From IMG/VR virus record IMGVR_UViG_2648501390_000019: a stretch of 5,339 nt of DNA, one strand, 5' to 3'. The position numbers and the translations under genes were made by a program. A model generated the notes under the pieces. That model was not told the DNA's origin and made no database searches. It worked only from the letters and a program-made list of their open reading frames with translations. The stretch is from a virus. Its lineage: Duplodnaviria; Heunggongvirae; Uroviricota; Caudoviricetes. Below are positions 1 to 5,339 of this stretch, piece after piece (position 1 is the stretch's first letter; each line of letters begins with the position of its first letter).

Positions 1-134
1 GGTTCGGTGGGGACGGAGGGCGCGATATTTTATCGTCTGCGGATGTGGCGGATGTCATGGTGGATGATGCCGCATTAATGATGGCTTCAGCGGGGATTCC
101 GGGAGGTGTGAGATATGTCCCAGCCGGTTGGTGA
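1..134 (+). CDS. T: Tail assembly chaperone gpT-like, 3' end only (C-terminal part of the G-T frameshift product; 5' end lies outside the window)
   Basis: Frame 3 is open from the window edge to a TGA at 132..134 (translation FGGDGGRDILSSADVADVMVDDAALMMASAGIPGGVRYVPAGW*). It overlaps the H start by 20 nt, matching the lambda T/H arrangement as I recall it. Position immediately upstream of H fits the conserved order. Confidence 0.65.
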   Translation, partial: FGGDGGRDILSSADVADVMVDDAALMMASAGIPGGVRYVPAGW

Positions 135-2688
135 TCTTGTTATTGACCTGAGTCTGGATGCTGTCCGTTTCGATGAGCAGATGAGCCGGGTAAGGCGTCA
201 TTTTTCAGGTCTGGATACCGACGCCAGAAAAACCGCCAGTGCTGTTGAACAGGGCCTGAGCCGCCAGGCGCTGGCTGCACAAAAAGCCGGGATTTCCGTC
301 GGGCAGTATAAAGCGGCCATGCGAACCCTGCCCGCACAGTTTACGGATATCGCCACGCAGCTTGCCGGTGGTCAGAATCCCTGGCTGATCCTGCTGCAAC
401 AGGGCGGTCAGGTGAAGGACTCCTTCGGCGGGATGATCCCCATGTTCAGGGGGCTTGCCGGTGCGATCACCCTGCCGATGGTCGGGGTCACCTCGCTGGC
501 GGTGGCGACAGGTGCGCTGGCGTACGCCTGGTACCAGGGCGACGCCACGCTTTCAGAATTTAATAAAACGCTGGTCCTTTCCGGCAATCAGGCCGGACTG
601 ACTGCCGATCGTATGCTGACGCTCTCAAGAGCCGGGCAGGCAGCAGGGCTGACGTTTAACCAGGCGAGAGAGTCACTGGCAGCCCTGGTGAATGCCGGTG
701 TGCGTGGTGGTGAACAGTTTGATGCCATCAACCAGAGTGTCGCGCGTTTTGCGTCTGCATCCGGTGTGGAGGTGGATAAAGTCGCTGAAGCCTTCGGGAA
801 GCTGACCACTGACCCGACGTCGGGACTGATGGCGATGGCGCGCCAGTTCCGTAACGTGACGGCAGAGCAGATTGCGTATGTTGCACAGCTGCAGCGTTCC
901 GGAGACGAGGCCGGGGCATTGCAGGCGGCGAACGATATCGCCACGAAAGGCTTTGATGAGCAGACCCGTCGCCTGAAAGAAAACATGGGAACACTGGAGA
1001 CCTGGGCGGATAAAACAGGGAAGGCATTCAAATCGATGTGGGATGCCATTCTGGATATCGGTCGTCCGGAATCCTCAGCGGATATGCTCGCCAGTGCGCA
1101 GAAGGCATTTGATGAGGCGGATAAAAAATGGCAGTGGTACCAGAGCCGGAGCCAGCGCCGGGGAAAGACCTCCTCTTTTCGTGCGAACCTTCAGGGGGCA
1201 TGGGATGACCGGGAAAATGCCCGTCTGGGTCTGGCAGCGGCCACGCTGCAGTCGGATATGGAAAAAGCCGGTGAACTGGCGGCAAGGGACAGGGCTGAGC
1301 GTGAGTCGTCACAGCTGAAGTATACCGGAGAGGCGCAGAAGGCGTATGAGCGCCTGCAGACGCCGCTGGATAAATATACCGCCCGTCAGAAAGAGCTGAA
1401 TAAGGCCCTGAAAGACGGAAAAATCCTGCAGGCGGATTACAACACGCTGATGGCGTCGGCAAAAAAGGATTATGAATCGACGCTGAAAAAGCCGTCAGGT
1501 GTGAAGGTGTCTGCCGGTGAGCGCCAGGAAGACCGGGCGCATGCAGCCCTGCTGGCGCTTGAAACCGAGCTCAGGACGCTGGAAAAACACAGCGGTGTGA
1601 ATGAGAAAATCAGCCAGCAGCGCCGGGATTTATGGGAAGCGGAAAGTCAGTATGTGGTCCTGAAAGAGGCCGCCACGAAACGGCAGTTATCTGAGCAGGA
1701 AAAATCCCTGCTGACCCATGAGAAAGAGACGCTGGAGTACAAACGCCAGCTGGCTGAGCTGGGAGACAAGATTGAACACCAGAAGCGGCTGAATGAGCTG
1801 GCACAGCAGGCGGCGCGGTTTGAACAGCAGCAAAGCGCGAAGCAGGCGGCAATCAGCGCAAAAGCCCGCGGCCTCACCGACCGTCAGGCGCAGCGGGAGT
1901 CGGAAGAGCAGCGCCTTCGTGAGGTGTACGGTGATAATCCGGCTGCGCTGGCGAAGGCCACATCGGCACTGAAGAACACCTGGTCTGCGGAGGAGCAGCT
2001 TCGTGGAAGCTGGATGGCCGGGATGAAGTCCGGCTGGGGAGAGTGGGCGGAAAGTGCGACGGACAGTTTTTCGCAGGTTAAAAGTGTGGCCACGCAGACC
2101 TTTGACGGTATTGCACAGAATATGGCGGCGATGCTGACCGGCAGCGAACAGAACTGGCGCAGCTTCACCCGTTCCGTGCTGTCCATGATGACAGAAATTC
2201 TGCTTAAGCAGGCAATGGTGGGGATTGTCGGGAGTATCGGCAGCGCCATTGGCGGGGCTGTTGGTGGCGGCGCATCCGCGTCAGGCGGTACAGCCATTCA
2301 GGCCGCTGCGGCGAAATTCCATTTTGCAACCGGAGGATTTACGGGAACCGGCGGCAAATATGAGCCAGCGGGGATTGTTCACCGTGGTGAGTTTGTCTTC
2401 ACGAAGGAGGCAACCAGCCGGATTGGCGTGGGGAATCTTTACCGGCTGATGCGCGGCTATGCCACCGGCGGTTATGTCGGTACACCGGGCAGTCTGGCAG
2501 ACAGCCGGTCGCAGGCGTCCGGGACGTTTGAGCAGAATAACCATGTGGTGATTAACAACGACGGCACGAACGGGCAGATAGGGCCACAGGCGCTGAAGGC
2601 TGTGTATGACATGGCCCGCAAGGGTGCCCGTGATGAAATTCAGACACAGATGCGTGATGGTGGACTGTTCTCCGGAGGTGGACGATGA
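115..2688 (+). CDS. H: Tail tape measure protein, lambda gpH family
   Basis: 857-aa ORF with ATG at 115 preceded by GGGAGGTG. The translation is recognisably lambda gpH-like along its length (N-terminus MSQPVGDLVIDLSLDAVRFDEQM..., C-terminus ...QTQMRDGGLFSGGGR). It has hydrophobic segments near residues 88-140, a charged central region, and a Gly-rich hydrophobic stretch near the C-terminus (MVGIVGSIGSAIGGAVGGGASASGG). Lambda gpH is 853 aa from memory. Confidence 0.95.
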   Translation: MSQPVGDLVIDLSLDAVRFDEQMSRVRRHFSGLDTDARKTASAVEQGLSRQALAAQKAGISVGQYKAAMRTLPAQFTDIATQLAGGQNPWLILLQQGGQVKDSFGGMIPMFRGLAGAITLPMVGVTSLAVATGALAYAWYQGDATLSEFNKTLVLSGNQAGLTADRMLTLSRAGQAAGLTFNQARESLAALVNAGVRGGEQFDAINQSVARFASASGVEVDKVAEAFGKLTTDPTSGLMAMARQFRNVTAEQIAYVAQLQRSGDEAGALQAANDIATKGFDEQTRRLKENMGTLETWADKTGKAFKSMWDAILDIGRPESSADMLASAQKAFDEADKKWQWYQSRSQRRGKTSSFRANLQGAWDDRENARLGLAAATLQSDMEKAGELAARDRAERESSQLKYTGEAQKAYERLQTPLDKYTARQKELNKALKDGKILQADYNTLMASAKKDYESTLKKPSGVKVSAGERQEDRAHAALLALETELRTLEKHSGVNEKISQQRRDLWEAESQYVVLKEAATKRQLSEQEKSLLTHEKETLEYKRQLAELGDKIEHQKRLNELAQQAARFEQQQSAKQAAISAKARGLTDRQAQRESEEQRLREVYGDNPAALAKATSALKNTWSAEEQLRGSWMAGMKSGWGEWAESATDSFSQVKSVATQTFDGIAQNMAAMLTGSEQNWRSFTRSVLSMMTEILLKQAMVGIVGSIGSAIGGAVGGGASASGGTAIQAAAAKFHFATGGFTGTGGKYEPAGIVHRGEFVFTKEATSRIGVGNLYRLMRGYATGGYVGTPGSLADSRSQASGTFEQNNHVVINNDGTNGQIGPQALKAVYDMARKGARDEIQTQMRDGGLFSGGGR

Positions 2689-3014
2689 AAACCTTCCGCT
2701 GGAAAGTGAAACCCGGGATGGATGTGACATCGGCTCCTTCCGTCAGGGAGGTGCGCTTTGGTGATGGCTATTCCCAGCGTGCGCCTGCCGGGCTGAACGC
2801 TGACCTGAAAACGTACAGCGTGACGCTGTCTGTCTCCCGTGAGGAGGCCACGGCGCTGGAGTCGTTTCTGGCTGAGCACGGGGGCTGGAAGGCCTTTCTG
2901 TGGACGCCGCCTTATGGTTACAGGCAGATAAAGGTGACCTGCGCAAAATGGTCGTCGCAGGTCAGTATGTTGCGTGTTGAGTTCAGCGCAGAGTTTAAAC
3001 AGGTGGTGAACTGA
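2685..3014 (+). CDS. M: Minor tail protein M, lambda gpM family
   Basis: 109-aa ORF, the same length as lambda gpM, with translation MKTFRWKVKPGMDV...RVEFSAEFKQVVN recognisable as gpM. The start overlaps the H stop in an ATGA (2685..2688). A GGAGGTGG Shine-Dalgarno lies just upstream. Confidence 0.93.
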   Translation: MKTFRWKVKPGMDVTSAPSVREVRFGDGYSQRAPAGLNADLKTYSVTLSVSREEATALESFLAEHGGWKAFLWTPPYGYRQIKVTCAKWSSQVSMLRVEFSAEFKQVVN

Positions 3015-3712
3015 TGCAGGATATCCGGCAGGAAACACTGAATGAATGCACCCGTGCGGAGCAGTCGGCCAGCGTGGTGCTCTGGGAAATCGATCTGACA
3101 GAGGTCGGTGGAGAACGTTATTTTTTCTGTAATGAGCAGAACGAAAAAGGTGAGCCGGTCACCTGGCAGGGGAGACAGTATCAGGCGTATCCCATTCAGG
3201 GGAGCGGTTTTGAACTGAATGGCAAAGGCACCAGTACGCGGCCCACGCTGGCAGTCTCTAACCTGTACGGCATGGTCACCGGTATGGTGGAAGATATGCA
3301 GAGTCTGGTCGGCGGAACGGTGGTCCGGCGTAAGGTTTACGCCCGTTTTCTGGATGCGGTGAACTTCGTCAACGGAAACAGCGACGCCGATCCGGAGCAG
3401 GAGGTGATCAGCCGCTGGCGCATCGAGCAGTGCAGCGAACTGAGCGCGGTCAGTGCCTCCTTTGTACTGTCCACGCCGACGGAAACGGACGGCGCTGTTT
3501 TTCCGGGACGTATCATGCTGGCCAACACCTGCACCTGGACCTATCGCGGTGATGAGTGCGGTTATCACGGTCCGGCAGTCGCGGATGAATATGACCAGCC
3601 GACGTCCGATATCACGAAGGATAAATGCAGCAAATGCCTGAGCGGCTGTAAGTTCCGCAATAACGTCGGCAACTTTGGCGGCTTCCTTTCCATTAACAAA
3701 CTTTCGCAGTAA
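3014..3712 (+). CDS. L: Minor tail (tip) protein L, lambda gpL family; C-terminal Cys cluster consistent with an Fe-S site
   Basis: 232-aa ORF, the same length as lambda gpL, with translation MQDIRQETLNECTRAEQSASVVLWEIDL... recognisable as gpL. The start overlaps the M stop in TGATG (3012..3016). A GGTGGTG Shine-Dalgarno-like sequence lies upstream. Cysteine codons at 3530, 3557, 3626, 3635 and 3647 are clustered in the last 60 residues. Confidence 0.93.
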   Translation: MQDIRQETLNECTRAEQSASVVLWEIDLTEVGGERYFFCNEQNEKGEPVTWQGRQYQAYPIQGSGFELNGKGTSTRPTLAVSNLYGMVTGMVEDMQSLVGGTVVRRKVYARFLDAVNFVNGNSDADPEQEVISRWRIEQCSELSAVSASFVLSTPTETDGAVFPGRIMLANTCTWTYRGDECGYHGPAVADEYDQPTSDITKDKCSKCLSGCKFRNNVGNFGGFLSINKLSQ

Positions 3713-3716
3713 TCCC

Positions 3717-4460
3717 ATGACAGAGACAGAATCAGCGATTCTGGCGCACGCCCGGCGATGTGCGCCAGCGGAGTCGTGCGGCTTCGTGGTGAGAACGCCG
3801 GAGGGGGAAAGATATTTCCCCTGCGTGAATATCTCCGGTGAGCCGGAGGCGTATTTCCGGATGGCTCCGGAGGACTGGCTGCAGGCAGAGATGCAGGGTG
3901 AGATTGTGGCGCTGGTCCACAGCCACCCCGGTGGTCTGCCCTGGCTGAGTGAGGCTGACCGGCGGCTGCAGGTGCAGAGTGATTTGCCGTGGTGGCTGGT
4001 CTGCCGGGGGGCGATTCACAAGTTCCGCTGTGTGCCGCATCTCACCGGGCGGCGCTTTGAGCACGGGGTGACGGACTGTTACACGCTGTTCCGGGATGCT
4101 TACCATCTGGCGGGGATTGAGATGCCGGATTTTCATCGCGGGGATGACTGGTGGCGTCACGGTCAGAATCTCTATCTGGACAATATGGAGGCTACAGGGC
4201 TGTACCGTGTCGCACTGACAGAGGCGCAGCCGGGCGATGTGCTGCTGTGCTGTTTTGGTTCATCGGTGCCGAATCACGCCGCCATTTACTGCGGCGACGG
4301 TGAGCTGCTGCACCATATTCCTGAACAACTGAGTAAACGAGAGAGGTATACCGACAAATGGCAGCGACGCACACACTCCCTCTGGCGTCACCGGGCATGG
4401 CACGCATCTGCCTTTACGGGGATTTGCAACGATTTGGCCGCCGCATCGACCTTCGTGTGA
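3717..4460 (+). CDS. K: Tail tip assembly protein K, lambda gpK family (JAB/MPN metalloprotease-like domain plus NlpC/P60-like domain); start codon uncertain
   Basis: The frame is open from the L stop to a TGA at 4458..4460. ATG at 3717 lies 5 nt after the L stop (possible coupling, no clear Shine-Dalgarno) and gives 247 aa. ATG at 3861, preceded by GGAGG with an 11-nt spacer, gives the 199-aa form that I recall as the lambda reference annotation. The JAMM motif HSHPGGLPWLSEAD (H-x-H-x7-S-x2-D) is at 3918..3959. An NlpC/P60-like Cys (DCYTL) is at 4077..4079, with His residues downstream (NHAAIY...LLHH). The track's 3675 start is a TTG that overlaps L. Confidence 0.85.
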   Translation: MTETESAILAHARRCAPAESCGFVVRTPEGERYFPCVNISGEPEAYFRMAPEDWLQAEMQGEIVALVHSHPGGLPWLSEADRRLQVQSDLPWWLVCRGAIHKFRCVPHLTGRRFEHGVTDCYTLFRDAYHLAGIEMPDFHRGDDWWRHGQNLYLDNMEATGLYRVALTEAQPGDVLLCCFGSSVPNHAAIYCGDGELLHHIPEQLSKRERYTDKWQRRTHSLWRHRAWHASAFTGICNDLAAASTFV

Positions 4461-4999
4461 AAACGGGGGCTGAAGCCATCCGGGCACTGGCCACACAGCT
4501 CCCGGCGTTTCGTCAGAAACTGAGCGATGGCTGGTATCAGGTACGGATTGCCGGGCGGGATGCAGGAGAAACCGAATTATCATCCCGTCTTAATGAGCCG
4601 CTGGCAAATGGTGCCGTGATCCACATCGTGCCGCGTCTTGCGGGAGCAAAAAGTGGCGGTGTGTTTCAGGCGGTGCTGGGTGCGGCGTTGATTGCTACGG
4701 CAATCTGGATGCCGGGGATCAGTATCGCTTTCAGTGACATTCTCTTTTCAATGGGTGCGGCGATGACGCTTGGTGGTGTGGCGCAGATGCTGGCACCGAA
4801 AGCCAGAACTCCCCGTACACAGACAACGGATAACGGCAAACAGAACACCTATTTCTCCTCACTGGATAACATGGTTGCCCAGGGCAATGTCCTGCCTGTT
4901 CTGTACGGTGAAATGCGCGTGGGGTCACGTGTGGCATCTCAGGAGATCAGCACGGCAGATGAAGGGGATGGTGGTCAGGTTGTGGTAATTGGGCGGTAA
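4358..4999 (+). CDS. I: Tail assembly protein I, lambda gpI family (N-terminal ubiquitin-like region ending in Gly-Gly, hydrophobic C-terminal region)
   Basis: 213-aa ORF with ATG at 4358 preceded by GAGAGG, and translation MAATHTLPLASPGMARICLYGDLQRFGRR... ending ...EGDGGQVVVIGR, recognisable as gpI. It overlaps the 3' end of K by 103 nt in a different frame, as in lambda. A di-glycine is at residues 100-101 (4655..4660), followed by a long hydrophobic segment. Confidence 0.9.
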   Translation: MAATHTLPLASPGMARICLYGDLQRFGRRIDLRVKTGAEAIRALATQLPAFRQKLSDGWYQVRIAGRDAGETELSSRLNEPLANGAVIHIVPRLAGAKSGGVFQAVLGAALIATAIWMPGISIAFSDILFSMGAAMTLGGVAQMLAPKARTPRTQTTDNGKQNTYFSSLDNMVAQGNVLPVLYGEMRVGSRVASQEISTADEGDGGQVVVIGR

Positions 5000-5072
5000 T
5001 ATTATTTTACTCATGTTCTAACTAATTTAATATTTATATCGAACACTGATAATTATTCTATTGGTTAGCTAT
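5000..5072 (+). promoter_or_regulatory. AT-rich intergenic segment; candidate promoter region for the downstream lipoprotein ORF (weak, unverified)
   Basis: A GATAAT hexamer at 5048..5053 is a 5/6 match to the -10 consensus, but I found no convincing -35. The region is so AT-rich that hexamer matches are expected by chance. Confidence 0.2.
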
Positions 5073-5249
5073 ATGAACAAAACGATTTTATTCTGCACGA
5101 TTATTGCCTTAACAGGATGTAAATCTTTGGATTACGTAAAATCCGGAAAACCTGTAATGGAAGGTAATTCATTAAAAAATATTGATGAATTGTCAGGCTG
5201 CATATCCAGACAATGGGCTGGTAATGGAACACCTATAACATCCCGGTGA
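5073..5249 (+). CDS. Putative small lipoprotein; reading frame runs into the IS1 end and is probably truncated by the insertion
   Basis: ATG at 5073 gives MNKTILFCTIIALTGCKSL..., a classic lipoprotein signal peptide: a short basic n-region, a hydrophobic core, and a lipobox L-T-G-C with Lys at +2. The segment is AT-rich, unlike the tail module. The last codons (cgg, tga at 5244..5249) are supplied by the IS1 terminal repeat, so the native C-terminus is not known. The track's TTG start at 5061 is less likely. Confidence 0.45.
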   Translation: MNKTILFCTIIALTGCKSLDYVKSGKPVMEGNSLKNIDELSGCISRQWAGNGTPITSR

Positions 5250-5267
5250 TGCTGCCAACTTACTGAT
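5245..5267 (+). repeat. IS1 left terminal inverted repeat (about 23 bp)
   Basis: GGTGATGCTGCCAACTTACTGAT at the outer end of the IS1 match. Confidence 0.8.
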
Positions 5268-5299
5268 TTAGTGTATGATGGTGTTTTTGAGGTGCTCCA

Positions 5300-5339
5300 G
5301 TGGCTTCTGTTTCTATCAGCTGTCCCTCCTGTTCAGCTA
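5300..5339 (+). CDS. insA: IS1 InsA (transposition repressor / N-terminal part of the InsAB' transposase), 5' end only
   Basis: GTG at 5300 followed by GCT TCT GTT TCT ATC AGC TGT CCC TCC TGT TCA GCT, which translates to (M)ASVSISCPSCSA, the InsA N-terminus including its first Cys pair. It sits 56 nt into the element, as expected for insA. Confidence 0.8.
   Translation, partial: MASVSISCPSCSA

Follow-up and report, generated by a model that had tools for sequence, protein, structure and literature searches.

Accessory genes inserted between the conserved late genes of lambdoid phages are known as morons. Bacterial lipoproteins, the substrates of Lgt and LspA, are recognized by a signal peptide ending in the lipobox [LVI][ASTVI][GAS]C. 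Among insertion sequences, a full copy of IS1 has 768 bp and comprises insA (an ORF beginning at IS1 nt 56, the product of which is a zinc-finger/HTH repressor), insB, the A6C frameshift site between them, and the right inverted repeat; the element also forms composite transposons. Its length of 768 bp, its inverted repeats, the production of the transposase InsAB' via a frameshift, and the 8- or 9-bp target duplication have been described, together with a weak promoter, PIS1, that overlaps the left inverted repeat (IRL) in part (PMC12428005). IS1, its mechanism, and insertion events of the kind described below are already known and ordinary.

The whole stretch of DNA analysed here (the window, 5339 bp) is the entire contig JHRB01000277.1 of the E. 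coli draft assembly GCA_001265265.1, the two being identical from end to end. An exact look-up of the tape measure protein encoded in the window returned a single record, WP_052935213.1, named E. coli and located on the same contig. A Shigella origin was considered and rejected, as the source record names E. coli. A literature search on assembly GCA_001265265.1 found nothing.

The tail cluster and its accessory lipoprotein gene

Over positions 1-5244 the window shares 99.3% identity with a prophage that occurs in E. coli UTI89 and in relatives of the ST95 type. The lambda-like tail order H-M-L-K-I is conserved in the window, with the corresponding protein families in sequence, and is followed by an accessory segment that is cut by IS1:

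1-134, + strand: T, 3' end (called genes and Pfam matches on the source contig; UTI89 annotation)
115-2688, + strand: H, tape measure (Pfam TMP_2/Tape_meas_lam_C)
2685-3014, + strand: M (Pfam Phage_min_tail)
3014-3712, + strand: L (Pfam Phage_tail_L)
3717-4460, + strand: K (Pfam Prok-JAB/NLPC_P60)
4424-4999, + strand: I, tail assembly, intact, the last tail gene before IS1 (Pfam Lambda_tail_I)
5000-5244, + strand: AT-rich accessory (moron-like) segment between I and J, the target of IS1 (GC content; presence or absence among prophages)
5073-5249, + strand: truncated lipoprotein gene of the phrog_914 family, with 57 native codons, one Arg codon and a TGA from IS1 (the ATG at 5073 matches the start of the UTI89 CDS)

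In UTI89 the order continues from I through a gene for a 112-aa lipoprotein to J (L001 6779-10258, where L001 is the UTI89 locus), Lom, and the tail fibre. This lipoprotein gene is the usual occupant of the I-J gap in the intact relatives (UTI89 and loci L003, L009, and L011), and in the intact arrangement J begins 234 bp past the point at which the window is interrupted. Immediately downstream of the gene comes J, which encodes the receptor-binding tail tip.

The 38 differences between the window and UTI89 are clustered within 385-4396 (for example at 2160-2163, 2391-2601, and 4178-4202), and there are none in the last 848 bp before IS1. On a comparison of the two sequences, this patchy distribution would be what recombination among lambdoid prophages produces. 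At its other end (1-134) the contig begins inside continuous phage sequence, in the 3' part of T, and already its first base is collinear with UTI89, which suggests that the left break lies at a sequence common to other lambdoid prophages of the genome and is not a biological boundary.

The uninterrupted gene of UTI89 (L001 6374-6712, 112 aa) is annotated as a hypothetical protein. Its product matches phrog_914, a family of unknown function, with an E-value of 7e-33, and gave no Pfam match. The N-terminus, MNKTILFCTIIALTGC, holds the lipobox LTGC at residues 13-16, and by this motif the 112-aa product is a predicted lipoprotein. Across 12 aligned family members G15, C16, C43, C111, and the stretch MGGYDVVLD (M72-D80) are invariant, and L13 is nearly so (at least 90%). 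The homologs are confined to the Enterobacteriaceae, namely E. coli, Klebsiella, Enterobacter, Kluyvera, and Jejubacter. The AlphaFold model of the protein is confident, with generic structural matches only. At the DNA level the lipoprotein gene had no megablast-level match among 50,697 deposited phage genomes, and the accessory segment is present in 337 of 5426 complete E. coli genomes.

In several respects this gene resembles a moron. It is AT-rich whereas its neighbours are GC-rich (a GC fraction of 0.275 at 5000-5199 against 0.53-0.60 in the tail genes), it is variably present, and in UTI89 it comes with a terminator-like hairpin. Its variability is seen in prophages with an identical L protein, some of which run from I directly to J while others carry the 112-aa gene. 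It differs from morons that have a promoter of their own, since a consensus scan of the coding strand found no promoter-like site upstream of the lipoprotein gene. Taken on these sequence features, the gene is a candidate phage moron. The UTI89 hairpin, GAGCCGCC-TTT-GGGCGGCTT followed by a T-rich run, is situated at L001 6736-6756, between the lipoprotein gene and J. It thus sits inside the late operon, and late transcription would need to read through it.

The IS1 left end and the interrupted reading frame

Collinearity with UTI89, at 100% identity from position 4397 onwards, stops exactly at 5244/5245, and the following elements can be placed at and beyond this point:

5236-5244, + strand: predicted 9-bp target TAACATCCC (8-bp alternative AACATCCC), the bases immediately left of IS1 nt 1
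5245-5339, + strand: left end of IS1, nt 1-95, broken off by the contig end (95/95 identical to the IS1 copies of phage P1 and of E. coli strain 3045)
5245-5267, + strand: IRL of IS1, 23 bp, GGTGATGCTGCCAACTTACTGAT (the P1 record annotates the terminal inverted repeat at the same place)
5252-5279, + strand: promoter-like CTGCCA-16-TATGAT, a consensus match only from the consensus scan, lying where the IRL-overlapping promoter of IS1 is expected
5300-5339, + strand: 5' part of insA with a GTG start, reading MASVSISCPSCSA and so on, with the start of the zinc-finger CxxC (DNA identical to P1 insA)

Positions 5245-5339 match nt 1-95 of the IS1 of phage P1 (NC_005856) at 95 of 95 positions (E-value 4e-42), and the IS1 copies of Shigella phage SfIV and others give the same match. 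In the P1 record the mobile element IS1 occupies L012 901-1668 (768 bp), of which the window matches L012 901-995. The terminal inverted repeat annotated there (L012 900-923) agrees with an IRL at 5245-5267. The GTG at window position 5300 corresponds to IS1 nt 56, where the P1 record begins the insA CDS (L012 956). Strain 3045 carries a complete IS1 whose left end is likewise identical to the 23 bp at 5245-5267; 19 of these 23 positions match its right end once the latter is reverse-complemented. We therefore confirm that the element at 5245-5339 is a genuine IS1 left end. The preliminary description of this DNA, drawn up from the letters alone, had placed the inverted repeat at 5245-5267 and the start of insA at 5300, both of which the P1 annotation bears out, and had correctly given the element the same orientation as the tail operon. 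It had also envisaged that an alignment to an IS1 reference could turn out partial or chimeric; the visible part aligns at 95/95 from IS1 nt 1.

The portion in view amounts to 12% of the 768-bp element and includes 13 codons of insA (window 5300-5338). Compared with IS1 copies of the IS1A/IS1E/IS1R type, as found in E. coli and phage P1, the visible part shows no difference, the 95 identical nucleotides including the IRL, the promoter region, and the 13 insA codons. Between the copies of P1 and strain 3045 there are 20 differences in 768 positions, none of them in the first 95 nt, so that the isoform cannot be named from the window. An IS1F-like isoform was ruled out, the window being only 86% identical to IS1F-type copies.

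As the break in collinearity falls exactly at IS1 nt 1, the junction bears the signature of a real transposition, as opposed to a chance match or a random chimera. In UTI89 the sequence across the insertion point reads ACATCCC followed by TTCCTATTGAGAATGG, while in the window it reads ACA TCC C/GG TGA (the slash marking the junction), IS1 giving one Arg codon and a stop. The resulting ORF, 5061-5249 on the + strand, ends with the TGA at 5247-5249, which belongs to the IS1 terminus GGTGA; the preliminary description was right that the lipoprotein ORF owes its stop codon to IS1. The lipoprotein gene is cut after codon 57 of 112. What is left is a stub of 58 residues that keeps the signal peptide, the lipobox, and about 40 residues of the mature protein, and that loses the invariant M72-D80 (MGGYDVVLD) and C111 as well as four of the five strands and the last helix of the AlphaFold model. 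Judged by that model, the stub cannot form the predicted fold.

The truncated ORF, in its 58-aa and 62-aa versions, had no record in exact protein look-ups. The left junction had no match in exact scans of GTDB representatives, JGI metagenomes, and IMG/VR, and is absent from 5426 complete E. coli genomes by megablast, where the best cover (85%) corresponds to the phage part only. Compared with other copies of IS1, the window is set apart by its insertion site, which was present in no other genome searched.

Other IS events in the lipoprotein gene

The accessory segment is uninterrupted in 333 of the 337 complete E. coli genomes that contain it and disrupted in the other four. In strain 3045 (NZ_CP103570.1; L014 2233-3000, and L015) an IS1 is found in the lipoprotein gene, its right end abutting the window-equivalent position 5187. 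This copy lacks a 9-bp duplication, its left flank being ACAGATTTA and its right flank GAATTGTCA. The prophage concerned is located at ompW, and IS1 connects its int-xis-exonuclease end directly with what remains of the lipoprotein gene on the 3' side, followed by J, lom, and the tail fibre; on its sequence we read this as an IS1-associated deletion of most of the prophage. The element, its orientation, and its target gene are the same as in the window, and the site lies 58 bp upstream of the window's. The two nevertheless differ, since in strain 3045 the phage sequence left of the lipoprotein gene is deleted and J is kept, whereas the window keeps the left side. With a different insertion point, the event in strain 3045 is independent of that in the window. 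As we read it, strain 3045 shows that IS1-associated deletion does happen at the lipoprotein gene, but as a different event and with opposite polarity.

In strain GN05476 (NZ_CP147578.1; L016 2243-3500) the same gene is interrupted by an IS3 with a 3-bp duplication, AAC, at the window-equivalent positions 5237-5239, and J is intact downstream. This insertion shares with the window the target gene and the I-lipoprotein-J context, and lies 5 bp upstream of the IS1 site. It differs in belonging to the IS3 family, in its 3-bp duplication, in its length of about 1.26 kb, and in having both junctions visible. Gene I of GN05476 is annotated as frameshifted.

Altogether, three independent IS events fall within 58 bp: the IS1 of the window, the IS1 of strain 3045, and the IS3 of GN05476. 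For three uniformly placed sites a span of at most 58 bp has a p of about 0.04-0.08, depending on whether the target is taken as 478 or 339 bp, in a test that was chosen post hoc. The three hits are mildly suggestive of a preferred target. That the phrog_914 gene is a preferred landing pad for IS elements, and as such a fragile site for the inactivation and erosion of lambda-like prophages of E. coli, we consider doubtful and distinctly unlikely.

The probable course of the insertion and what it means

Multicopy repeats are not crossed by a short-read assembler, and contigs stop within them after the length of a read or k-mer; this is why the window breaks off 95 nt into IS1. How common this repeat is appears from queries containing an IS1 end, for which 4979-5397 of the 5426 complete E. 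coli genomes have a match, with a median of 10-11 places in each, against only 337 of 5426 genomes for the phage-specific part of the query. The seeming lack of J therefore reflects a contig boundary produced by the assembly and is not an observed deletion. The preliminary description had taken the tail operon to lose J at this point and had seen in this a sign of an IS-mediated deletion. This part of it is not supported, as the window is a whole draft contig that ends in a repeat, and the lipoprotein gene is normal in the I-J gap.

The reading that we favour is a simple insertion. A copy of IS1 (768 bp) would have transposed into the AT-rich accessory lipoprotein gene that separates I from J in a lambda-like prophage, moved by the transposase InsAB', the product of a -1 ribosomal frameshift from insA to insB. 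Lying in the same direction as the tail operon, IS1 cuts the lipoprotein gene after codon 57 and ends its ORF with its own GGTGA; the remainder of the gene, followed by J, lom, and the tail-fibre genes, would be found on a further contig of GCA_001265265.1. We put the probability of this reading, a simple insertion flanked by a duplication of TAACATCCC with the remaining genes on another contig, at about 0.65. It predicts a right junction at which the right end of IS1, GTTGGAGTCATTACC, would be followed by TAACATCCC (or AACATCCC) and TTCCTATTGAGAATGG, running into J; the second copy of the target would accordingly be TAACATCCC and then TTCCTATTGAG. With a simple insertion, J would start about 1 kb beyond the end of the window. 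A search for the predicted right junction with a spacer of 0-12 nt gave no match in IMG/VR, GTDB representatives, or JGI metagenomes, none of which contains the source assembly. Among 5426 complete E. coli genomes, also without the source assembly, megablast found such a junction only in strain 3045, at a different site. The homolog search likewise returned no cluster with a representative like the 41-aa C-terminal fragment that PGAP calls in strain 3045 (WP_000509652.1). Neither the right end nor the second target copy is seen in the window, and the simple-insertion part of the reading is therefore based on a priori likelihood and on the left flank being intact. The AT-rich target (GC 0.275) was counted in favour of IS1 insertion, and the IS3 of GN05476, only 5 bp away and leaving J intact, is a precedent for a simple insertion.

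Left of IS1, everything is collinear with an intact prophage. With the left flank collinear up to IS1 nt 1, a leftward deletion is ruled out and a random chimera is very unlikely. A rearrangement towards the right is another matter: an adjacent deletion or inversion mediated by IS1, or recombination between two IS1 copies, would have parted I from J and from the lipoprotein gene's 3' half, perhaps along with lom and the tail-fibre genes, leaving a defective prophage. Replicative adjacent deletions by IS1 are known (Turlan and Chandler 1995, as cited in PMC12428005), and the IS1 copy that interrupts this lipoprotein gene in strain 3045, without the 9-bp duplication, goes with the absence of about 30 kb of phage genes. 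The window itself holds no positive evidence of such an event; its left flank matches the order of the intact prophage perfectly as far as the first nucleotide of IS1, and the absence of J is fully explained by a contig ending in a repeat. We regard a rearrangement as rather unlikely, yet as deserving some weight.

Only nt 1-95 of the element are visible, and these could also form the end of one arm of an IS1-bounded composite transposon (Tn9-like) or of a tandem or nested IS, in which case more than 768 bp of foreign DNA would separate I from J. No sequence supports such an arrangement, and on E. coli chromosomes solitary copies of IS1 far outnumber composite transposons, which makes it improbable in our view. 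An assembly chimera, in which IS1 was misjoined to a phage contig and the true, uninterrupted site would read ACATCCCTTCCTATTG, seems hardly credible. Draft contig ends are error-prone and the junction occurs in no other genome searched, but a random misjoin would be very unlikely to place the change from phage to IS1 sequence precisely at the element's first nucleotide, as is expected of transposition, and IS elements can evidently reach this site, given the independent insertions within 58 bp in other genomes.

If the insertion was a simple one, the lipoprotein gene would be inactivated, the prophage would gain 777 bp, and J may be transcribed less through polarity. Polar effects of IS1 are classical; Q antitermination of the lambda late transcript would probably lessen them.

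For the annotation of this contig, a lambda-like tail cluster with a pseudogenised phrog_914 lipoprotein gene and a partial IS1 at the contig end would be a suitable description, and the absence of J from the contig is not to be taken as prophage decay. The same caution applies to window-based scans in general, where an end inside a multicopy IS may reflect a draft contig and "missing" downstream genes are not evidence of deletion. Beyond annotation the IS1 insertion is of little consequence. The source strain is, however, a natural knock-out of the phrog_914 lipoprotein gene, and would be useful as such if the function of this gene is ever studied.
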